Assembly: GCA_030649135.1 (NCBI GenBank)
Contig: JAUSGI010000008.1
Span: 1-64,000 of the forward strand
Direction: 5' to 3'
Source: a bacterium
GTDB taxonomy: Bacteria > Patescibacteriota > Minisyncoccia > Phycocordibacterales > Zambryskibacteraceae
DNA: 64,000 nt
Shown piece by piece: positions 14,145 through 39,182 of the stretch; the stretch's first letter is position 1; every line of letters begins with the position of its first letter. Both the position numbers and the translations under genes were made by a program. The notes beneath the pieces are model-generated. The model was given only the letters and a program-made list of their open reading frames with translations, ran no database searches and was not told the DNA's origin.

Positions 14145-14381
14145 ATGTCAAGTATACTTAAAGTCAAAAAATCTTATAATAAGTACATGCAAATTCTGGA
14201 TATAAAGTTGCACAAACAAGTTAAAATGGTTTCCAAAAGGCTTGGCTTAAATCCTCGTGAGGTTATAAATCGCGCAGTTTCTTCTTACCTCGGTAGTATG
14301 AAAGAACTCACAGACCTTCAGAAAGAGCTTCATCTGTGGGATGTTTTGTCTGCACAAACAATGCAAAAATATAAGTTCTAG
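14145..14381 (+). CDS. ribbon-helix-helix (CopG/MazE-like) antitoxin
   Basis: 78 aa; LDIKLHKQVKMVSKRLGLNPREVINRAVSSYL; sits 3 nt upstream of the MazF-like ORF. Confidence 0.6.
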   Translation: MSSILKVKKSYNKYMQILDIKLHKQVKMVSKRLGLNPREVINRAVSSYLGSMKELTDLQKELHLWDVLSAQTMQKYKF

Positions 14382-14383
14382 AT

Positions 14384-14707
14384 ATGAAACCGGGTGATGT
14401 ATATATTGTTCGTATTCCCGAACTCGGTACTCACGAACAGAGTGGAACAAGACCTGTAGTGGTCATTGCTCGAGTTACAAAAACCATCGTTACAATCATC
14501 CCTTGCACTGGAAATAAACTTGCTCTTCGTTTCCCATACACATATGAGATAGAAGCAACAAAAAGGAACGGTCTATCTGTCAATTCTGTAGCACTCGTAT
14601 TTCATATTCGCGCTCTTGACTCCTCTTTTCTTAAGGATAAAATAGGCGAACTCGATAAGAAAGTACTTGCAAATATACGAAAACAAGCAAGACAACTTAT
14701 TGGATAA
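14384..14707 (+). CDS. MazF/PemK-family endoribonuclease toxin
   Basis: PGDVYIVRIPELGTHEQSGTRPVVVIA (PemK/MazF N-terminal signature); 107 aa. Confidence 0.75.
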   Translation: MKPGDVYIVRIPELGTHEQSGTRPVVVIARVTKTIVTIIPCTGNKLALRFPYTYEIEATKRNGLSVNSVALVFHIRALDSSFLKDKIGELDKKVLANIRKQARQLIG

Positions 14708-15661: not shown

Positions 15662-15670
15662 TTGTTTAAA

Positions 15671-15698
15671 TTGACAGGGTATCTGTTTGGGGTAGAAT
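15671..15698 (+). promoter_or_regulatory. sigma70-like promoter (TTGACA-N16/17-TAGAAT) for the small Zn-ribbon gene
   Basis: TTGACAgggtatctgtttggggTAGAAT, then GGGAGGAGGTG SD and the ATG. Confidence 0.5.
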
Positions 15699-15716
15699 TT
15701 CGGGAGGAGGTGAACT

Positions 15717-15917
15717 ATGAGCCTTTGTGCGTCTTGTGGTCTCCAGCTTTCCGGCGAAGCCGGGCTATGCCCACACCATCATTGCGTTTATGGCGACGAC
15801 TGGGCTGTTGCCAACCGGCTGATGTGCGACCTGCTTCACCGCCGGCGGGTACCACCGCGTTTGTCGGTAACCGAGCGTGACGACGACTTCTGGGGGGCGA
15901 CTGGCGACGCGGCCTAG
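15717..15917 (+). CDS. small GC-rich Cys/His-rich (zinc-ribbon-like) protein, 66 aa
   Basis: very strong SD GGAGGAGGTG 7 nt before the ATG; CASCG...CPHHHC; own promoter and terminator. Confidence 0.55.
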   Translation: MSLCASCGLQLSGEAGLCPHHHCVYGDDWAVANRLMCDLLHRRRVPPRLSVTERDDDFWGATGDAA

Positions 15918-15949
15918 AATCACTAAGGCCGTCTTCGGACTCGTGCCGC

Positions 15950-15991
15950 GCGGGCGACTTCGGTCGTCGCCCGTGCGGTGTTTTATTTTTA
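15950..15991 (+). terminator. rho-independent terminator
   Basis: GGGCGAC-ttcggtc-GTCGCCC followed by TGTTTTATTTTT. Confidence 0.65.
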
Positions 15992-16008
15992 TATGGTCAA
16001 TAAAAATC

Positions 16009-16041
16009 GACCCTCGGTTCGCGCGAGCGAGACCGAGGGTT
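16009..16041. repeat. copy A of a repeated GC-stem hairpin (ACCCTCGGT...ACCGAGGGT); terminator-like for the minus gene 16060-16401
   Basis: 9-bp perfect stem; near-identical copy at 56003-56035; the minus strand has a T-run after the stem. Confidence 0.6.
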
Positions 16042-16059
16042 GGGTCCATTCTCTGTTGT

Positions 16060-16401
16060 TCAGACTTGCTTGAGAGCGGCAGGGTGGCGTTTCCGCCAAA
16101 CGTTGTGGAGCTTCCACCGCACCACGATTACTCGTTTTTCCGTGGCGCTCCAGACCAGACAGGCGACGCTAGGATCGCCTGGCGATCCTCCCTGAGAGTT
16201 CCAGAGAGAAACCACTTTCTTCTTGAGCTTCTTTTGGTAAGAAGACGGGTTGACGAGCCAACCTTTGACCCGCTCGTCCTCGAGGGAATAGCATTGCTTG
16301 ATGAGGCCTGTCTCCGTGAGATGTTTCCGGAGGTCGTAGCCCCAGATCCATCCGTCCACCTTCTTCTGCTTGTCGTGGAGGTAGAGATTAATCTTGTTCA
16401 C
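16060..16401 (-). CDS. hypothetical GC-rich protein, 113 aa
   Basis: GTG start preceded by AAGGAGAG; terminator hairpin downstream; no recognisable domain. Confidence 0.5.
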   Translation of the reverse strand: MNKINLYLHDKQKKVDGWIWGYDLRKHLTETGLIKQCYSLEDERVKGWLVNPSSYQKKLKKKVVSLWNSQGGSPGDPSVACLVWSATEKRVIVVRWKLHNVWRKRHPAALKQV

Positions 16402-16523
16402 CTTTTCTCTCCTTAAGTGCGCGATTTGTCCTTTTTAAACGTACATTACATTATATTGTCTGTCAATAATTTTATAAAAATAGGCTTTAGCTATCCCGAA
16501 AAAATCTGCTTTAATTAATATTG

Positions 16524-16553
16524 ACATTTTGGCCTGTTTTGTGCTATAATTAG
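16524..16553 (+). promoter_or_regulatory. consensus sigma70 promoter (TTGACA-N18-TATAAT)
   Basis: TTGACAttttggcctgttttgtgcTATAAT; the short leader contains the TCTCTCTAGAGAGA palindrome next to the SD. Confidence 0.55.
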
Positions 16554-16592
16554 AGTAGACACATCGATCTCTCTAGAGAGGAGATATAAGCT

Positions 16593-16925
16593 ATGTTTTG
16601 GTTTCTCGTCATTTGCGCGGGATTCGTTGGCGCAGTAGCTGATGTGCTGATCAGCTACTGGAGCCAGACAAATCGACTGGTGTGGTGGCTGGCCGGTGCG
16701 GCGGGAAGTCTCGGATTTGTAACAGGACTTGGCCTGATCATCCGGCTGGGCGTGATCGGCGGGCATACCCTAACGGTCGCGCTGGTGCTCGTGGTCCTCG
16801 TCAATGTCGCTTTCGTGGCGGCATGGGACGTCATCTACAACGTAGCAGGACCAACCACACTGCAGTGGTTGGGAATCGTCCTAGCTCTCGGGGCAGTAGT
16901 CTGCCTCGAGCTTGGGCGGAAATGA
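16593..16925 (+). CDS. SMR/DMT-like four-TM small multidrug or guanidinium-type exporter (110 aa)
   Basis: four hydrophobic helices; acidic residue in TM1 (AVADVL); very GC-rich. Confidence 0.5.
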   Translation: MFWFLVICAGFVGAVADVLISYWSQTNRLVWWLAGAAGSLGFVTGLGLIIRLGVIGGHTLTVALVLVVLVNVAFVAAWDVIYNVAGPTTLQWLGIVLALGAVVCLELGRK

Positions 16926-17009
16926 AAGGGGGTAAACGCCCGGGAATCCAAGGATTCCCGGGCATCTTTGCTTGTGCGCATTGCAGATATTTGTTAATCT
17001 TTTTTAAAC

Positions 17010-17519
17010 ATGACGAATCTTTTGCCCAAGTTCGCTTTTTTTGTAGCCGGTACTGGCCGGCACCATGATCGTCTCCAAGCCTTCGATCGAGCTCTTCTTA
17101 GCGCCGGTCCCTTTGCGCATAATTTGGTTTCAGTATCAAGTATCATACCGTCAGAGTGTAAAATTATTTCTGCAGAAGAAGGTTTTAAAATGCTGATCCC
17201 GGGTCAAATAGTTTTCTGCATCATGGCTAGACAAGATACCAATACTAGTGGCCATACCGCTTCATCAGCAGTAGGTATTGTGCAATCGGGAAAATTTACA
17301 AATTTTGGCTATATTTCCGAATACCATGGAAGTGCTTCCAGTAAAGATGAGGCGGAAAATATAGCGAAAAAACTGGCGCGAGAAATGTTTTCGTTAAAGG
17401 TTGGCGTTATGCTTGAAGAACTTGATATAAAATTTCTTGATGCTATCGGAGCATCTATCGAGAACTTTGGTGATGACCAATGGACATGTGCTGTTTCTTT
17501 GTGTGTTTTCGTAATCTAG
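17010..17519 (+). CDS. pdaD: pyruvoyl-dependent arginine decarboxylase (PdaD/PvlArgDC family)
   Basis: FFVAGTG...AFDRALLSAG...NLVSVSSIIP (Ser-Ser self-cleavage motif), ~165 aa. Confidence 0.65.
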   Translation: MTNLLPKFAFFVAGTGRHHDRLQAFDRALLSAGPFAHNLVSVSSIIPSECKIISAEEGFKMLIPGQIVFCIMARQDTNTSGHTASSAVGIVQSGKFTNFGYISEYHGSASSKDEAENIAKKLAREMFSLKVGVMLEELDIKFLDAIGASIENFGDDQWTCAVSLCVFVI

Positions 17520-19248
17520 AATAGGGGCCCTTTTCTTTCCCTACAAGATATTCACCGATTGCCAAGTGGTCCATTTTTGTTCTCATAAATGTTTTTATCG
17601 CGTCCTCCGGCGAGCACACAATAGGTTCGTTATCGTTAAATGAAGTATTTAGCACTAGGGGTACTCCAGTCTGCTTTAAAAAACTAGTAATAAGCTTGTG
17701 ATATAGGGGATTAGTGTTCTTGTTTACCACTTGTGCGCGGCTTGTATTGTCTTTGTGGGTGACTGCTGGAATTTTACCGTGTTTGTCTTTACTCACGTCA
17801 AAATTTATTTCCATAAACTCTGTGGAAATAGATCTGCAATCTGGTGAGATACTAAACCAATTTTGTACTTGTTCTCTCAATACACTCGGAGCAAATGGTC
17901 TAAATGGCTCGCGCTTCTTAATACGAATATTAAGAAGATTCTTCATTCTCTGCGAGCGTGGGTCAGCGAGAAGCGAGCGGTTACCCAAGGCACGTGGTCC
18001 CCACTCACTCCTACCCTGAAACCACCCAATAATGTTACCCTCTGCCAAACGTGCCGCCACATCGTGGACGAGGTTCTTAGCTTTCTCATATTTTAATCCT
18101 GCGCGATCTAGGGCTTCCCGTATTTCTTTGTCAGTATATTCTGGACCCCAGTATGCGTGCTCCATGACAAAAGATCTCTTGCCACCTAACATTTGGTTCC
18201 AAATATAATATGCAGCACCCAGAGCTGTCCCGGCATCATTGGCAGCCGGCTGTACGTATATATTTCTAAATAGCGAGCTATTCATCAGCATTTGATTGGA
18301 TACGCAATTTAGTGCTACGCCACCAGCCAAACACAAATTTCCGGATATTGTTTTCTGTTGAATGAACTCTGCCAAATGTAGAATAACATCATTGGTTATT
18401 TTCTGTAGCCCTGCAGATATATCTTCTTGATCCTTTCCGATCTCGTTTGGAGTATTGATTTTTCTAACACCAAATAAGCTCTCTAACTGGCTGAAATCAT
18501 CTATGCGAAAGCGCATGGCGCTGTTATTGATTAAGAACTCACCATTTGGCAGAAGACTAACTAATGTTTGAAATTGTTTATAAAATCGGTCAGGATTACC
18601 GTAAGCAGCAAGCCCCATTACTTTTGATGAATCATATTCTGTAAATCCTAAATACTTGCTGATTTTTTCCCATAAAAAACCAACAGAATTGGGATAGTTA
18701 ACTTCTTTAATAACTCTTATCTTATTATCTTGACCGATTCCCATCCATGTAGAAGAAAATTCACCTATGCCATCAATAGAGATAATGGCGGATTTTTTGA
18801 AAGGAGAGACGAAGAAAGCACTGCTCGCATGGCAAATATGATGCGGTATCCAGTGAATTTTTTTTGAAATATCTTGGCCAGCTATTTTATTAAGCATCAT
18901 GGGTATGCGCTTTATTTTTTTATAAAACAGCTTTTCTCCCTCCTCGCTGCCCCAGTCTCCTTTGTTGAAATATTTGTCGGTACCGATGTTCTTTAAACGA
19001 TCTTCTGGCAGAAAAGAAAGACCGATATAGTCGATTTTATTAAGTGTTATACCGCCTACCTTAAGGCAGTATTCTATTGATTTCAAAGGCAGGGTATCCG
19101 GGTTACCTACTAGTGATTTTTTACCTCTTTTTATGCGAGAAAATCTTTCTTCCTCTACGGCTGCCAGAAGCTTGCCATCTTTCACAAGACATGCTGACAG
19201 CTCGTGGTAAGCAAAATTTAACCCTAGTATGTAAAGCGGCTTCCTCAT
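17455..19248 (-). CDS. NodU/CmcH/TobZ-family carbamoyltransferase
   Basis: N-term YILGLNFAYHELSACLVKDGKLLAAVEEERFSRIKRGK; ~597 aa two-domain architecture. Confidence 0.75.
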   Translation of the reverse strand: MRKPLYILGLNFAYHELSACLVKDGKLLAAVEEERFSRIKRGKKSLVGNPDTLPLKSIEYCLKVGGITLNKIDYIGLSFLPEDRLKNIGTDKYFNKGDWGSEEGEKLFYKKIKRIPMMLNKIAGQDISKKIHWIPHHICHASSAFFVSPFKKSAIISIDGIGEFSSTWMGIGQDNKIRVIKEVNYPNSVGFLWEKISKYLGFTEYDSSKVMGLAAYGNPDRFYKQFQTLVSLLPNGEFLINNSAMRFRIDDFSQLESLFGVRKINTPNEIGKDQEDISAGLQKITNDVILHLAEFIQQKTISGNLCLAGGVALNCVSNQMLMNSSLFRNIYVQPAANDAGTALGAAYYIWNQMLGGKRSFVMEHAYWGPEYTDKEIREALDRAGLKYEKAKNLVHDVAARLAEGNIIGWFQGRSEWGPRALGNRSLLADPRSQRMKNLLNIRIKKREPFRPFAPSVLREQVQNWFSISPDCRSISTEFMEINFDVSKDKHGKIPAVTHKDNTSRAQVVNKNTNPLYHKLITSFLKQTGVPLVLNTSFNDNEPIVCSPEDAIKTFMRTKMDHLAIGEYLVGKEKGPYSRLRKHTKKQHMSIGHHQSSR

Positions 19249-19257
19249 TCAGTCTGA

Positions 19258-19271
19258 TTATTGTGCAATAA
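19258..19271. promoter_or_regulatory. palindrome TTATTG-TG-CAATAA in the divergent intergenic region; candidate operator
   Basis: perfect 6+6 inverted repeat between the carbamoyltransferase start and the membrane-sensor gene. Confidence 0.35.
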
Positions 19272-19333
19272 CAATACGTGTATAGTACAATAAAAAACGT
19301 AAAGATGGTAGAATTGATGAAAGTAAGCTAAAG

Positions 19334-20149
19334 ATGAATATAGTAAAAAAGTTGTTGATATTGGACTACATTCTAGCTCTAGGGGTGGTTATTTGGTTGT
19401 CTCTATCAAACATCACCAGTTCTGTTGTCATCGATCTCTATGGGGTACTTTTTCTAGGATTAATTCCTATGTTAGGTGGTATCACGGGACTTATAATTGC
19501 AAAGCAATGGGGTGCCTTCAGAAGTGCTGTAGGAAGAGCAATTATCTTCCTGTCTCTGGGCTTAATCTCTTGGGGCTTAGGAACGTACATATTCTCCGGC
19601 GTATACAATTTTCTACTACAAGTGGAAGTACCTTATCCTTCTCTGGCTGATGTCGGCTATATATTGAGTTTGCCTCTTTGGGTCATTGGTATAATCCAAC
19701 TTTCCCGTGCCACGGGGGCAAAATACGGCCTGCGATCTTTTAATGGTAAGCTGGTATTTCTCACTATACCAGTCATTGTAATCCTGCTTTCATATTATCT
19801 GTTAGTTGTGGTTGCTCGCGGAGGACATATTGATTTATCGAATAGCGGTATTCTGAAGATCTTCTTCGATCTTGCGTATCCGGTAAGCGATGTCATCATT
19901 CTGACACTTGCCACGTTAATTTATGGATTATCGTTTAATTATTTTGGAGGGGTCTACAAGAAGGCTGTTTACTTTATGCTTGCCGGATTTCTCATTATGT
20001 ACTGCGCGGATTTCCTATTCTCCTATACGACGACTCTTGGGACTTGGCGTCCGGCGAATTGGGTAGACTTATTATTTACTACAGCCGTGTTTATTTTATC
20101 TATGGGCGTTGTGATGTTTGATCAAAGAAAGGTGTCAAGCGCCAATTAA
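19334..20149 (+). CDS. polytopic membrane protein (putative sensor module)
   Basis: ~7 hydrophobic helices; no catalytic domain; lies upstream of a soluble histidine kinase. Confidence 0.55.
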   Translation: MNIVKKLLILDYILALGVVIWLSLSNITSSVVIDLYGVLFLGLIPMLGGITGLIIAKQWGAFRSAVGRAIIFLSLGLISWGLGTYIFSGVYNFLLQVEVPYPSLADVGYILSLPLWVIGIIQLSRATGAKYGLRSFNGKLVFLTIPVIVILLSYYLLVVVARGGHIDLSNSGILKIFFDLAYPVSDVIILTLATLIYGLSFNYFGGVYKKAVYFMLAGFLIMYCADFLFSYTTTLGTWRPANWVDLLFTTAVFILSMGVVMFDQRKVSSAN

Positions 20150-20438
20150 AAACATGACTACTATCGACCAAATTGCCGGGACAATCATCAAAGAACAGGA
20201 GCTTATTATAGGTCCTCTGGCGTGGCAAGAAGCCGGAAAAGTAAGTGGCGTGCACATTATTGATGCGAGGTCTGGTTCTGTTACTGTGGGGAATGGAGAC
20301 AGTAAACTTGTCATTGATAAATTGGTCAGTCAGTACGAGCGTCTATTTGGGCGAGCTTCTCGTGAAGTGTGCAGGGAGGCGGCAACGCCATTTCTGTCAA
20401 ATCTTGCTCCAGCAGAGATACCTTTAAGTTTACAGTAA
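20118..20438 (+). CDS. hypothetical small protein (real start probably the ATG near 20154)
   Basis: ORF between the membrane protein and the kinase; no recognisable domain. Confidence 0.35.
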   Translation: MIKERCQAPIKNMTTIDQIAGTIIKEQELIIGPLAWQEAGKVSGVHIIDARSGSVTVGNGDSKLVIDKLVSQYERLFGRASREVCREAATPFLSNLAPAEIPLSLQ

Positions 20439-20442
20439 AACT

Positions 20443-21273
20443 ATGGCGGACAGTGACATGAATAACCAGATTTCTAGCGAGGAATATAAAAAAGTTACAG
20501 AGGAACTGTACAAACAAAATCTTGAGGTAGTCCGATTGTATAAACAGGTCGAGAACTTGAATAGCGAACTCGAGATTGCTAATGAGGGGCAGGCAAATTT
20601 AATACACATCATTAACCACCAAATCAAAGGCTATTTAGCTAAGGCGAGAAACATTTTCTCCGAATTGCTCTCCGAACCGTCCTACGGTCCGGTTACTCCC
20701 ACCGCTAAACCCATGCTCGAGGAAGGATTCAACTCGCTCACCGAAGGAGTCACCTTTGTCACGGACTTTTTAACCGCCTCCAATATTGAGAAAGGAACTT
20801 TCGTCTATGATATGCAATCTGTGGACTTTAAAACAATAGTAACCGAAGTGGCCGAGAAACAAAAAGAGACGGCAAAGGAAAAAGGTCTCTCCTTCGAGCT
20901 CACGGCTATTCCCGGCGACTATAACATGAAAGGGGACGCGAGTCAGCTTGGTCAGGCAGTAAAAAACTTGATTGACAATTCCGTCCGCTATACACCGAAG
21001 GGTGGTCTGGTCGTTAATCTGTCACACCCCAACGACAAAATTCTTCTCGCGGTTAATGATACCGGTGTGGGCATCTCGGAGGAACTCAAACCCAGGCTCT
21101 TCACCAAAGGCGGCAGGGACAAGGATTCGCTCAAGGTCAATGTAAACTCGACCGGCTTCGGCTTGTCCTTCGTGAAGGGTGTGGTAGAAGCGCACAAGGG
21201 TCGCGTCTGGGCCGAATCCGCCGGTCCCGACAAAGGCTCTACTTTCTACATGGAGTTACCGGTTAATTCTTGA
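20443..21273 (+). CDS. soluble histidine kinase core (coiled coil, HisKA, HATPase_c)
   Basis: H-box IINHQIKGYLAKARN; N-box NLIDNSVRYT; G-boxes DTGVGI and GFGLSFVKG. Confidence 0.75.
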   Translation: MADSDMNNQISSEEYKKVTEELYKQNLEVVRLYKQVENLNSELEIANEGQANLIHIINHQIKGYLAKARNIFSELLSEPSYGPVTPTAKPMLEEGFNSLTEGVTFVTDFLTASNIEKGTFVYDMQSVDFKTIVTEVAEKQKETAKEKGLSFELTAIPGDYNMKGDASQLGQAVKNLIDNSVRYTPKGGLVVNLSHPNDKILLAVNDTGVGISEELKPRLFTKGGRDKDSLKVNVNSTGFGLSFVKGVVEAHKGRVWAESAGPDKGSTFYMELPVNS

Positions 21274-37160: not shown

Positions 37161-39182
37161 ATGAATAAAAAAACTATCATCTCTGCGTCCGATGATATAA
37201 TCCTAAATCTCAAAGTTTCGGCTAAGGAAAAAGAAATTGTCAGGCGCAAACTTGCTGTAACAGCAGAGAGGCTTGCTGCGACGGCAGTGAAACTTGCCAT
37301 AACAGCTAAGGAAAGAGAAAGTGTGAGGATTAAGCTAGCGGTGACTGCCGAAGAAAAGGAACATGTCAGGCTTAAGTTAGTGGTGACCGCAGAGAAGCTT
37401 GCTGTAATCGCAGAGAAGCTTGCTGTGACTGCCGAGGAAAAGGAAAGTGTCAGGCGCAAACTTGCCGTGACGGCAGCCAAACTTGCAGTAACGGCAGCTA
37501 AACTCTCCGCAACTACTGAGGAAAAAGAAAGTGTGAGACGCAAGAAGCTAGTCGCGACAGCAGCTAAGCTTGCTGTAACAGCAGAGAAGCTTGCTGCGAC
37601 CGCCAAAGAAAAGGAGAGTGTCAGGCGCAAACTTGCTGTGACCGCAGCCAAACTTGCTGTGACAGCAGAGAAGCTTGCCGCGACGGCCAAGGAAAAAGAA
37701 ATTGTTAGGCGTAAACTCGTCGTGACGGCAGAAAAGCTAGTCGTGACGGCAGCCAAACTCGCCGTGACAGCAGAGAAGCTTGCCGCGACGGCAGCCAAAC
37801 TCGCAGTAACTGCTAAGGAAAAAGAAATTGTTAGGCGTAAACTTGCAGCGACTGCTAAGGAAAAAGAAAGTGTCAGGCGCAAGCTGGTAGTGACTGCTAA
37901 GGAAAAAGAAAGTGTCAGGCGTAAGCTGGTGGTGACAGCCAAGGAAAAGGAGAGCGTCAGGCGTAAGCTGGTGGTGACAGCAGCTAAACTTGCTGTAACT
38001 GCAGCGAAACTCAAAAAGTCGTACGAAACACTCGAGAAGAAAGTGCTTGAACGAACCAAGAGTCTAGAAATGTCCAGAGCAAAGGAAGAGGCGGTTTTGC
38101 TCTCGATTGGTGACGGACTTCTTGTGACTAATGAAAAAGGAAATGTTATTATTATAAATAAGACAGCTGAAAAACTACTCGGTATTAAGAGTAAAGAAGC
38201 TATGGGAAAGGTCTTTTCCGAAGCCGTTCTTTTGGTAGATGAAAAAGGGGTGCCTATTCCGTCAGAGAAACATCCCGTAAGGATGGCTCTAGTAAGCGGC
38301 ATTACTACTGCCACTACTATTGTAGGTTCCACTTACTATAATGTGCGGAAAGATAAAACGAAATTTCCTGTGGCAATTATGGTCACGCCCGTTATTCTTG
38401 ACGGGAAGGTGATTGGAACAATTGAAGTTTTTCGAGATATTACCGCCGAGCGGGAAATTGATAAAGCCAAAACCGAATTTGTTTCCCTTGCTTCACACCA
38501 GCTCCGCACCCCGCTTTCTACGGTCAATTGGTACGCGGAAATGCTTCTGGCCGGAGATGTGGGGGAGTTGAATGAAAAACAAAAGAAATATTTAGATGAG
38601 GTATATCGCAGTAATCAGCGAATGGTTGAATTGGTAAACGCCCTTTTGGATGTCGCTTCTCTTGAAATTGGTACCTTTGTGGTTGAGCCGGAACCAACCG
38701 ATATAATCGAACTAGCGCAAAGTGTCATAGACGAACAAAAACCGCAGATTGAGGCCAAAAAAATAGTATTTTCTTTTTCATTCGGGAAAAATATTTCACT
38801 TATGCAGGCCGACCCCAAACTCCTGCGAATGATAGTGCAAAATATCTTGTCAAATGCGGTAAAATATACTCATGAAGGCGGGAAAATCGATATGTCGATT
38901 TCCTTAGCGGACAAAAATAATATTCTTCTGAAAGTCGATGATACGGGCTACGGCATACCCCAAAATCAGCAAGATAAAATATTTACCAAGCTGTTTCGGG
39001 CCGATAATGTCAGAGATAAAGACACGGACGGCACGGGCCTCGGGCTCTATATTGTAAAGTCAGTCGTTGAAAATTCTGGCGGGAAAATCTGGTTTAAGTC
39101 CGTGGGCGGGGAAGAAAATAAAGGCACCACCTTTTATGTATCGCTGCCTTTGGATGGGGCGAAAAAGCCGGCTAATATATAA
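37161..39182 (+). CDS. sensor histidine kinase: N-terminal repetitive coiled coil, PAS, HisKA, HATPase_c
   Basis: heptad KEKESVRRKLAVTAAKLAVTAEKLAAT repeats; PAS; H-box SLASHQLRTPL; HATPase N/G boxes. Confidence 0.85.
   Translation: MNKKTIISASDDIILNLKVSAKEKEIVRRKLAVTAERLAATAVKLAITAKERESVRIKLAVTAEEKEHVRLKLVVTAEKLAVIAEKLAVTAEEKESVRRKLAVTAAKLAVTAAKLSATTEEKESVRRKKLVATAAKLAVTAEKLAATAKEKESVRRKLAVTAAKLAVTAEKLAATAKEKEIVRRKLVVTAEKLVVTAAKLAVTAEKLAATAAKLAVTAKEKEIVRRKLAATAKEKESVRRKLVVTAKEKESVRRKLVVTAKEKESVRRKLVVTAAKLAVTAAKLKKSYETLEKKVLERTKSLEMSRAKEEAVLLSIGDGLLVTNEKGNVIIINKTAEKLLGIKSKEAMGKVFSEAVLLVDEKGVPIPSEKHPVRMALVSGITTATTIVGSTYYNVRKDKTKFPVAIMVTPVILDGKVIGTIEVFRDITAEREIDKAKTEFVSLASHQLRTPLSTVNWYAEMLLAGDVGELNEKQKKYLDEVYRSNQRMVELVNALLDVASLEIGTFVVEPEPTDIIELAQSVIDEQKPQIEAKKIVFSFSFGKNISLMQADPKLLRMIVQNILSNAVKYTHEGGKIDMSISLADKNNILLKVDDTGYGIPQNQQDKIFTKLFRADNVRDKDTDGTGLGLYIVKSVVENSGGKIWFKSVGGEENKGTTFYVSLPLDGAKKPANI
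37200..38010 (+). repeat. in-frame tandem repeats, 21-bp periodicity with 42- and 84-bp higher-order units
   Basis: e.g. three 42-bp units GCTAAGGAAAAAGAAAGTGTCAGGCGCAAGCTGGTAGTGACT at 37854-37979. Confidence 0.85.

Follow-up and report, generated by a model that had tools for sequence, protein, structure and literature searches.

Genes and features of the locus

The locus analyzed here lies in a 64-kb stretch of DNA (the window) from a bacterium of the Patescibacteria. It holds genes for a pyruvoyl-dependent arginine decarboxylase (pdaD), a carbamoyltransferase (CT) and a multi-pass membrane protein (m271), set between the backbone genes dnaJ and memb110, to the left, and those of p95 and a histidine kinase, to the right. 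Its features are:

16521..16550, plus strand: sigma-70-type promoter of memb110, TTGACA-18-TGcTATAAT (12/12 match, extended -10)
16569..16585, plus strand: 12-nt palindrome CTCTCTAGAGAG, then the Shine-Dalgarno GGAGA, both read from the sequence
16593..16925, plus strand: memb110, backbone gene for a 4-helix membrane protein of predicted SMR fold (110 aa)
16938..16963, plus strand: GC-rich hairpin between memb110 and pdaD, terminator-like on folding, with an 11-bp stem and a weak T-tract
17010..17519, plus strand: pdaD, pyruvoyl-dependent arginine decarboxylase proenzyme (169 aa; PF01862, TIGR00286)
17136-17141, plus strand: codons of the PdaD cleavage site S43/S44, from alignment to M. jannaschii
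17455..19248, minus strand: CT, TobZ/NovN/NodU-type carbamoyltransferase with a Kae1-like N domain and a YrdC-like C domain (597 aa)
19249..19333, no strand: divergent intergenic region between CT and m271, from the gene coordinates
19334..20149, plus strand: m271, multi-pass membrane protein, third cassette member by its co-variation with the cassette
20154..20438, plus strand: p95, conserved soluble protein of ~94 aa, backbone, after m271 in all loci
20443..21273, plus strand: soluble histidine kinase, DHp and HATPase_c, backbone (NCBIfam matches over residues ~100-275)

A sequence-only reading had described a cluster of memb110, pdaD and the CT. The three open reading frames are where it placed them (16593-16925 and 17010-17519 on the plus strand, 17455-19248 on the minus strand), and its interpretation is supported in part: PdaD and the CT are co-conserved; memb110 does not belong to the unit, and m271, p95 and the kinase on the right had been overlooked.

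PdaD matches the Pfam profile PF01862 (PvlArgDC) over residues 6-168 with 148 bits (cutoff 22.7) and TIGR00286 with 115 bits, above the cutoff of 106.95, in agreement with the identity first proposed for it. It comes from a divergent subclade, with 35-42% identity to archaeal enzymes, and its score against the NF009064 equivalog is below the cutoff (147 versus 207 bits), so that its arginine specificity is an assumption. The self-processing site seen earlier in the motif NLVSVSSI is borne out by alignment: S43/S44 correspond to S52/S53 of the M. jannaschii enzyme, and D26, N38 and E104 to its D35, N47 and E109, which places all the catalytic residues. The subclade members (24/24) all share N38, S43, S44 and E104, and position 26 is aspartate in 17 and glutamate in 7 of these. 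The roles of N47 and D35 in the M. jannaschii enzyme are presumably those known from the mutant entries 2qqd and 1n2m of the PDB; those of the Ser-Ser self-cleavage site and of Glu109 have been described for PvlArgDC (PMC2720952). By its sequence, PdaD is predicted to be competent for both self-cleavage and decarboxylation, with arginine as the substrate that its family membership would suggest. Cleavage between Ser43 and Ser44 would yield the pyruvoyl cofactor, with which arginine would be converted to agmatine.

The gene sits behind the hairpin with no visible Shine-Dalgarno and no promoter of its own in the window, and its 3' end overlaps that of the convergent CT by 65 nt (17455-17519), as had been noticed from the sequence. 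The CT, likewise assigned correctly at the outset to the NodU/CmcH carbamoyltransferases, scores 204 bits for Carbam_trans_N and 227 bits for Carbam_trans_C in Pfam. It has full-length matches to NovN, GdmN and TobZ with 288-299 bits (NovN residues 21-569 aligned), and carries the motifs H136-H137-x-x-H140, D159 and D338 in register with NovN; we take the metal ligands of TobZ to be such a Kae1-type site of HxxxH, Asp and Asp. The match to the NodU equivalog, which stands for 6-O-carbamoylation of Nod factors, is partial and far too weak (149 bits versus a cutoff of 1000). The CT resembles TobZ, NovN, GdmN and NodU in its Kae1-like and YrdC-like domains, its full-length similarity and its His/Asp metal motifs, but is located outside any antibiotic or Nod-factor cluster, is coupled to amino-acid decarboxylases and belongs to a slowly evolving subfamily found in Patescibacteria, Cardinium and cyanobacteria.

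Profile searches of Pfam, NCBIfam, PHROGs and the PDB returned no relative of m271 and no family match for p95. Across its homologues m271 has an invariant motif, E98-V-P-Y-P-S-L-A-D106, along with K175, D179 and D245. The histidine kinase has no membrane or sensor domain and follows p95 in nearly all loci.

The neighboring memb110 and its leader

At 58.3% GC (GC3 0.65), memb110 is, as had been remarked, markedly richer in GC than pdaD (41.6%) and the CT (40.4%). Its homologues are all equally GC-rich within loci of 40-48% GC, which rules out reading its composition as a sign of recent horizontal transfer; such a composition is characteristic of the gene family. The TTGACA-N18-TATAAT promoter that had been proposed for it is indeed perfect at 12/12 positions, with the true site 3 nt further to the left, and is the sole such match in the 64 kb (0/100 shuffles). 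A TTGACA-N17/18-TG(C/A)TATAAT element is kept upstream of the memb110 homologues in four related loci (L001, L002, L005 and L008). From this consensus promoter memb110 is predicted to be expressed strongly and separately.

The leader of ~35 nt had been suggested to harbor a guanidine-responsive element overlapping a 14-nt palindrome. The exact palindrome is a 12-mer at 16569-16580, which is not conserved in relatives and for which we find no evidence of a regulatory role. An Rfam scan of the leader at E <= 10 gave only chance snoRNA-like matches and no guanidine riboswitch, and the leader folds no better than its shuffles (z +0.76), and we accordingly discard the proposed element. The strong structure lies on the other side of the gene, where it had gone unnoticed: the hairpin at 16938-16963 has a folding energy of -27.9 kcal/mol (z -4.46), matched by none of 200 shuffles. 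With a promoter of its own and a terminator-like hairpin before pdaD, memb110 lends no support to the pathway shared with PdaD that had been envisaged. Nor is it co-conserved with PdaD: the two adjoin solely in the window genome, and all six relatives with memb110 have an AdoMet_dc-like gene beside it instead.

The earlier assignment of memb110 to the SMR/Gdx-type exporters holds for the fold and fails for sequence membership. An AF2 model built from 49 sequences (one from 6 sequences was discarded as poor, with a pLDDT of 58) predicts an SMR fold of four helices over ~105 aa, with Gdx as the closest solved structure. However, memb110 has no Pfam match at E <= 0.1 and no NCBIfam hit, and PF00893 does not occur among the 25 most frequent of the 78 families matched by its 49 relatives. 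The family profile aligns only weakly with EmrE (E 0.05-1; hhalign probability of 7.6%). The Tyr switch, the binding-site Trp and the GXG of TM3 are signatures of SMR proteins (PMC9574504); in the weak profile alignment (E 0.05) the memb110 residues opposite EmrE Y60, W63, G65 and G67 are V, V, L and N. It does have a conserved Asp17, which may stand in for the central membrane-embedded Glu in TM1 of SMR proteins, and the consensus D17-K25 has the same spacing of 8 as EmrE E14-K22. The family numbers ~50 representatives, the distant ones weakly matching EamA/UPF0060. On this model memb110 represents a small new family, possibly DMT-like, of predicted SMR fold without the canonical SMR residues. 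The idea that memb110 corresponds to one copied half of the EamA transporter in a further locus, L098, was not supported (phmmer E 1.5e-5 in a small set; hhalign insignificant). As compared with Gdx (SugE) and MdtIJ (PMC9574504), memb110 differs in having neither a PF00893 match nor a guanidine riboswitch and, unlike the gene pair MdtIJ, is a single gene. A guanidine riboswitch is common upstream of Gdx genes. By its modeled fold, memb110 would be a probably dimeric, proton-coupled exporter of small cations.

Conservation and exchange of the cassette

We term the PdaD-type arrangement cassette B and the AdoMet_dc-like type, present in close relatives of the window genome, cassette A. In the 8/8 species genomes of the PdaD subclade, PdaD is accompanied by the CT, an m271-type membrane protein of ~275 aa and the ~95-aa protein, and usually by the histidine kinase too. 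None of the 72 PdaD loci outside the subclade shows the CT/m271/p95 neighborhood; thus, the co-conservation of PdaD and the carbamoyltransferase in relatives, expected from the first reading, is firmly seen. Other Patescibacteria PdaD loci (L027, L028, L045 and L089) have no CT or m271 as neighbors, making the linkage specific to the subclade. Rather than being unusual for a reduced genome, as had been supposed, the cluster is typical of one Patescibacteria lineage. A membrane protein of ~196 aa (p196) likewise lies beside PdaD with the CT, m271 and p95 in 8/8 subclade genomes from several Patescibacteria lineages. It is SemiSWEET/PQ-loop-like, with borderline matches to SemiSWEET (E 0.049) and to itself as an internal repeat (E 0.011), and takes in the other cassette-B genomes the place of memb110 in the window, where no p196 homologue is found anywhere in the 64 kb. 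In L010 and L015 p196 overlaps or abuts the start of pdaD, to which it is translationally coupled. Standing in the place of p196, memb110 may move the substrate or the product, without being specific to PdaD.

The block stays intact despite differing flanks (L010 as against L012 and L014), and its divergent CT/m271 layout recurs in L010, L012, L014, L015 and L098. pdaD and the CT are convergent in most genomes, and so are not co-transcribed; in two Kaiserbacteria pdaD is inverted and still adjoins the CT, with which it is then co-directional. As the genomes compared are all related Patescibacteria, part of this co-occurrence is inherited synteny. The similarities of DnaJ, p95 and the kinase follow the relatedness of the species; that of m271, in contrast, follows the cassette type, the window protein being 72-76% identical to type-B homologues and only 43-53% to the type-A homologues of the closest relatives, which places m271 within the cassette.

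Cassette A occupies the same site with an AdoMet_dc-like pyruvoyl decarboxylase and a GntF-like amine N-methyltransferase, joined in some cases by a SET-domain protein. Its decarboxylase retains Ser, His and Cys, with T-S at the processing site. Giles and Graham are said to have found in 2008 that the crenarchaeal arginine decarboxylase derives from AdoMetDC. The cassette A enzyme is similar in being an AdoMet_dc-family pyruvoyl enzyme in the PdaD position, far below the AdoMetDC equivalog cutoff, but its CPR processing site is T-S rather than E-S. In L098 a PLP-dependent Orn/DAP/Arg-family decarboxylase with an EamA transporter lies beside a CT-m265-p89-histidine kinase array. Hence, three non-homologous decarboxylase families (PvlArgDC, AdoMet_dc-like and PLP Orn/DAP/Arg) are found at one position, and each variant has a small transporter-like membrane gene by it, be it memb110, p196 or EamA. 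The slot itself holds an ABC transporter in L001 and L015 and radical-SAM genes in L005 and L015. In the window it holds a GC-rich insert of 755 bp (15662-16416) with no homologues; a decayed ABC transporter or p196 was rejected as its origin, since a tblastn search with every ORF from the related loci gave no match.

It could be argued that the stretch from dnaJ to the p95-kinase pair is no more than a variable region that collects unrelated genes, among which the repeated decarboxylases are coincidental. The varied contents of the slot and the presence of the CT elsewhere without decarboxylases would fit such an absence of a functional link. However, the recurrence of three unrelated decarboxylase families at one position, the persistence of the block in unrelated flanks and after the inversion of pdaD, and the co-variation of m271 with the enzymes rather than the species make it quite unlikely. 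The pdaD-CT-m271 unit is conserved and swappable in a group of ultra-small Patescibacteria. With moderate confidence, we take these three genes to be the functional unit, in which PdaD, the CT and m271 would have the roles proposed in this work.

Proposed chemistry and its significance

By homology to TobZ, whose mechanism has been described (PMC4615747), the CT would use carbamoyl phosphate and ATP to form a carbamoyl-adenylate in its YrdC-like domain, and the Kae1-like domain would move the carbamoyl group onto an acceptor. In Cardinium the CT homologue has carA-carB after it, in support of carbamoyl phosphate as the likely donor. With respect to the acceptor, the CT subfamily retains 51-58% identity as far as Cardinium and cyanobacteria, and homologues 62-63% identical to the CT occur in L101 and L102 with no decarboxylase or m271 nearby (decarboxylase neighbors are missing throughout L100-L102). 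The slow divergence and the occurrence without the cassette point to an acceptor that is common rather than cassette-specific. To our knowledge, all characterized enzymes of the TobZ/NodU family carbamoylate hydroxyl groups and none amines. Nevertheless, we tentatively propose, as about a one-in-three chance, that the CT takes as its acceptor what the decarboxylase makes, or a derivative of it, and carbamoylates the primary amine to a ureido-guanidino compound; the sister-genome cassette, in which a pyruvoyl decarboxylase goes with an amine N-methyltransferase, is a parallel case. The product of the pathway is thus possibly a carbamoylated arginine-derived amine, for which m271, judging from its co-variation, may be the cassette-specific transporter, receptor or membrane enzyme.

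Two more conventional accounts of PdaD bear on this proposal. In one, the decarboxylase and a small transporter constitute an arginine:agmatine exchange module like the chlamydial AaxBC, and the CT and m271 serve something unrelated, such as envelope modification. memb110, p196 or EamA would then import arginine and/or export agmatine, and the proton consumed by PdaD would contribute to pH homeostasis or the proton-motive force of a fermentative cell. AaxABC is a documented combination of a PvlArgDC and an antiporter (PMC2720952), and the present locus is like it in that a reduced genome encodes a self-cleaving PvlArgDC together with a protein for membrane transport. The transporter-like neighbor of every decarboxylase variant and the coupling of p196 to pdaD would fit as well. 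However, instead of an APC-type antiporter (AaxC/AdiC-like) and a porin, neither of which adjoins pdaD in the window or was called in the related loci, we see memb110 or p196; SMR-fold proteins are proton-coupled exporters, not amino-acid or amine exchangers (PMC9574504); and memb110 also stands beside a cassette that is not of the arginine type. Further, the conserved unit here includes the CT and m271, whose 8/8 co-occurrence and, for m271, co-variation such a module leaves unexplained. We therefore see it as rather unlikely.

In the other, PdaD would supply agmatine to ordinary polyamine biosynthesis; enzymes with genes elsewhere would turn it into putrescine or spermidine, and the neighbors would reflect inherited gene order. 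PvlArgDC is, by its family annotation, the standard first step in many archaea and some bacteria, and the Kaiserbacteria locus L014 has a gene of the saccharopine-dehydrogenase family 2 kb upstream. Yet neither the ORFs scanned in the 64-kb window nor the genes called within ~6 kb in the related loci include an agmatinase, agmatine deiminase, N-carbamoylputrescine amidase or spermidine synthase, so the agmatinase and AguA sought on the earlier suggestion are both missing from the window, and the linkage of PdaD to the CT and m271 is particular to one subclade; we deem this account very unlikely. A known route to a carbamoylated diamine proceeds via agmatine deiminase with putrescine transcarbamylase or N-carbamoylputrescine amidase (NCPAH). 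Like the carbamoyl-transfer pathway proposed here, it connects agmatine to a carbamoylated diamine and to the chemistry of carbamoyl phosphate, but those three enzymes are absent at the locus, and the reaction of a TobZ-type enzyme costs ATP instead of generating it.

A broader generalization, which we judge decidedly unlikely, is that the locus is a plug-in site at which whole small-molecule cassettes are interchangeable, each made up of an amine-forming decarboxylase (PvlArgDC, AdoMet_dc-like or PLP-dependent), a transferase that caps the nitrogen with a carbamoyl or methyl group, and a matching multi-pass membrane protein. The site lies directly upstream of the p95-histidine kinase pair. 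Were it true, these episymbiotic bacteria would produce modified amines particular to their lineage, for example N-carbamoyl- or N-methyl-agmatine, and would both export and sense them, as signals or in interactions with the host, and the TobZ-type enzymes would include amine N-carbamoyltransferases.

Our literature search found no paper that joins PvlArgDC to a NodU-type enzyme, to Patescibacteria or to carbamoylagmatine. As the genomes of Patescibacteria/CPR are very small, a gene block that several of their lineages have retained probably matters to these bacteria. Its interest lies in tying arginine decarboxylation to carbamoyl transfer and m271, with chemically parallel cassettes in sister genomes, and in adding with memb110 a predicted SMR-fold family that is devoid of the canonical SMR residues. 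It may provide the first physiological context for a widespread and slowly evolving subfamily of carbamoyltransferases, and a clue to a new metabolite or signal derived from arginine.

The window locus and its expression signals

The three ORFs singled out by the sequence-only reading (memb110, pdaD and CT) are present where it placed them, and are accompanied by the following features:

16521-16550: promoter of memb110, exact TTGACA-18-TATAAT consensus plus an extended -10 (TG)
16593-16925, + strand: memb110, small membrane protein (110 aa)
16938-16963: GC-rich 11-bp hairpin, directly after the memb110 stop codon
17010-17519, + strand: pdaD, pyruvoyl arginine decarboxylase (PdaD; 169 aa)
17455-19248, - strand: CT, carbamoyltransferase (597 aa)
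19334-20149: m271, membrane protein
20154-20438: p95, ~95-aa protein
20443-21273: histidine kinase

As claimed in that reading, pdaD and CT converge with overlapping 3' ends; the 65-nt overlap arises from the non-conserved C-terminal tail of CT, and in relatives the overlap is 62 or 8 nt, or the two genes lie 11-12 nt apart. The perfect promoter, which it had also recognized, is the sole match of its kind in the 64 kb, is absent from 100 shuffles and is kept in four of six relatives. The hairpin, which had gone unmentioned, is highly stable (-27.9 kcal/mol, z -4.46; 0/200 shuffles equally stable). Between it and the pdaD start at 17010 (16964-17009) there is no recognisable Shine-Dalgarno or promoter-like site, and the window pdaD may be expressed by read-through transcription starting at the memb110 promoter. 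The idea of a guanidine-responsive leader upstream of memb110 finds no support, as this leader matches no Rfam family, is not conserved in relatives and shows no excess structure (z +0.76). The palindrome described there does exist, its actual form being the 12-mer CTCTCTAGAGAG at 16569-16580.

Between dnaJ and the memb110 promoter lies a 755-bp GC-rich (55.8%) segment (15662-16416), which looks like a small insertion; none of the related loci has a homologue of it, and in one of them, L008, only 68 nt lead from dnaJ to memb110. It contains:

15671-15698: near-consensus promoter (11/12)
15717-15917: Cys/His-rich ORF (66 aa)
about 15945-15979: very strong terminator hairpin (-30.6 kcal/mol, z -4.6)
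16060-16401, - strand: ORF (113 aa)

Further genes are inserted between dnaK and dnaJ, two genes that stand side by side in relatives L001 and L010:

13682-14110, - strand: ORF (142 aa)
14145-14381: small Arc/RHH-like antitoxin candidate
14384-14707: MazF/PemK toxin (PF02452, 68.5 bits)

Elsewhere, the N-terminal ~300 residues of a histidine kinase (37161-39182) consist of many near-identical repeats (KLAVTAEKLAATAKEKESVRRKL...), forming an unusually long, coiled-coil-like region.

PdaD and the carbamoyltransferase

The pdaD product matches PvlArgDC (PF01862, 148 bits; Pfam) and reaches the TIGR00286 cutoff (115 vs 106.95) and not the stricter NF009064 model (NCBIfam). Alignment with its M. 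jannaschii counterpart (PDB 1n2m, 2qqd) equates D35, N47, S52-S53 and E109 of that enzyme with D26, N38, S43-S44 and E104 of the window protein; across 24 subclade members N38, S43, S44 and E104 are invariant and the D26 position is always acidic. For this family, both the cleavage site, Ser53, and a role for Glu109 are documented (PMC2720952). As the catalytic and cleavage residues are kept, the original identification of a self-processing PdaD stands. On alignment, the window enzyme is intact, and its substrate would be arginine.

The NodU/CmcH-type assignment of CT likewise holds: it matches both Carbam_trans_N (204 bits) and Carbam_trans_C (227 bits; Pfam), without reaching the NodU equivalog cutoff (NCBIfam), aligns over its full length to the solved O-carbamoyltransferases NovN, GdmN and TobZ (288-299 bits), and retains the HHxxH, Asp159 and Asp338 motifs. 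In TobZ, the YrdC-like domain first converts carbamoyl phosphate to carbamoyl-adenylate, from which the carbamoyl group is then passed on by the Kae1-like domain (PMC4615747). A homologue in a Cardinium endosymbiont (L099:6001-12101; 58% identical) has carA-carB immediately downstream, which fits carbamoyl phosphate as the donor and suggests a dedicated supply of it for this subfamily. These Cardinium genes are flanked by transposases in a reduced endosymbiont genome. CT identity is 66-76% among genomes with the PdaD-CT-m271 cassette (type B), 58-65% to other Patescibacteria and 51-58% to Cardinium and cyanobacteria; judged by these values, the subfamily evolves slowly.

Cassettes exchanged within a common backbone

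In a survey of 80 PdaD loci, one genome per species, CT, m271, p95 and a ~196-aa membrane protein (p196) adjoin PdaD in all eight loci of the close subclade (labelled Paceibacterota, Staskawiczbacteria, Nomurabacteria, Kaiserbacteria and Saccharibacteria), as opposed to none of the remaining 72, four other Patescibacteria included. The closest homologues share the order p196 - PdaD - CT (convergent) - ~275-aa protein - ~95-aa protein - histidine kinase, which is constant with either dnaK-dnaJ (L010) or an unrelated flank (L012, L014) upstream. In two Kaiserbacteria pdaD alone is inverted, lying downstream of CT, co-directional and still adjacent. This adjacency, inversion included, bears out the proposed co-conservation of PdaD and the carbamoyltransferase. 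The p196 protein has ~6-7 helices and no Pfam match; its similarity to SemiSWEET (E 0.049) and its internal repeat (E 0.011) are borderline. In relatives pdaD is translationally coupled to p196, the stop of which overlaps or abuts the pdaD start in L010 and L015; the window has no p196 homologue.

The grouping of memb110 with PdaD, by contrast, did not survive. In six of six independent memb110-bearing relatives the next gene is a convergent ~127-aa AdoMet_dc-family gene, never PdaD, followed in most by an NNMT/PNMT/TEMT-type methyltransferase and in some accompanied by a SET-domain gene. This type A cassette lies between the memb110 and m271 homologues (L001, L002/3, L005/6, L007, L008, L009), and homologues of the window m271, p95 and kinase are downstream in every such relative. 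Its AdoMet_dc-like protein scores a mere 25 against the AdoMetDC equivalog cutoff of 75.65 (NCBIfam). It still has residues equivalent to Ser, His and Cys of the T. maritima enzyme, carries T-S at the processing site and may, by analogy with the crenarchaeal one, be an arginine decarboxylase. The methyltransferase passes the cutoff of GntF (83 vs 60), the NCBIfam model for the amine N-methyltransferase of guanitoxin biosynthesis, and in L001 is translationally coupled to m271.

A third variant retains the same backbone (m265 and p89 being the m271 and p95 counterparts) and couples a 60% identical CT with a PLP-dependent Orn/DAP/Arg-family decarboxylase (371 aa, lysA-like, below cutoff) and a full-length EamA transporter:

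L098:3329-10617: dnaJ - decarboxylase - EamA transporter - CT - m265 - p89 - GAF histidine kinase - response regulator

Thus, three non-homologous decarboxylase families occupy one slot, and each variant has a neighbour resembling a small-molecule transporter.

Identities to the window proteins delimit the exchanged unit. DnaJ is 79-80% identical to those of type-A L001 and L008 and type-B L015, as opposed to 34-52% for the remaining loci; p95 is 81-83% identical to those of type-A L005 and L009, and the kinase (20443-21273) 64-72% to those of L005, L008 and L015. For m271 the values are 72-76% to type-B homologues, L010 included despite a DnaJ only 51% identical, and 43-53% to type-A homologues, L001 included despite a DnaJ 80% identical. 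By these comparisons DnaJ, p95 and the kinase track species relatedness and m271 the cassette type, which defines the exchanged unit as decarboxylase, transferase and m271. The memb110, p95 and kinase genes belong to the backbone, and in the window genome cassette B, minus p196, is set into the memb110 backbone otherwise seen in its type-A sister genomes.

The memb110 protein has no Pfam family; a word-based search recovered only six relatives, and 50 came out of an exhaustive HMM search covering 1.84 billion representatives. Among 49 of them, 29 weakly match EamA and 12 UPF0060/YnfA, and the best PDB matches of the family profile are EmrE chains (E 0.05-1). Asp17 is conserved, and in the weak EmrE profile alignment aliphatic residues or Asn stand opposite Y60, W63, G65 and G67. 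Hence, of the proposed SMR/Gdx-type exporter the predicted SMR-like fold is retained, and SMR family membership is not: we provisionally place memb110 in a new small DMT-clan family, probably SMR-like in mechanism with one putative buried carboxylate in TM1. Its GC-richness, noticed at the outset, amounts to 58% (GC3 0.65); all homologues are equally high-GC in loci of 40-48% GC, making this a family trait. Those of L001-L009 combine a GC3 of 0.60-0.72 with the consensus promoter, the compositional anomaly being conserved family-wide.

The proposed pathway and the acceptor

In the pathway we propose, PdaD would make agmatine, CT would use carbamoyl phosphate and ATP, m271 would handle the product of the decarboxylase/CT pathway and memb110 would export a small cation; the window holds no downstream polyamine genes. 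An acceptor for CT related to the decarboxylase product seems to us possible, if somewhat unlikely. An amine acceptor is favoured mainly because cassette A pairs a pyruvoyl decarboxylase with an amine N-methyltransferase, the nearest named relative of which acts on a guanidino-amine. It is disfavoured because the characterised CT relatives are, to our knowledge, all O-carbamoyltransferases, and because CT occurs in decarboxylase-free contexts: neither a decarboxylase nor m271 lies near the homologues of L101 and L102 (62-63% identity) or L100 (53%), which counts against a strict CT-decarboxylase link. In L101:6001-8876 and L102:6001-8830 CT is followed by a ~348-aa conserved protein that weakly resembles LPG_synthase_C (aminoacyl-lipid synthase), possibly a different partner for this subfamily.

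The closest known systems are AaxABC, which resembles the locus in the decarboxylase family plus transporter, Gdx/MdtIJ, in the fold of memb110, and the TobZ-type enzymes; in the literature we found no paper tying PvlArgDC to a NodU-type enzyme, Patescibacteria or carbamoylated agmatine. The single enzymes are ordinary members of their families. What seems not to have been described before is the cassette, with the putative function given above, together with the alternatives it is swapped for and the memb110 family.
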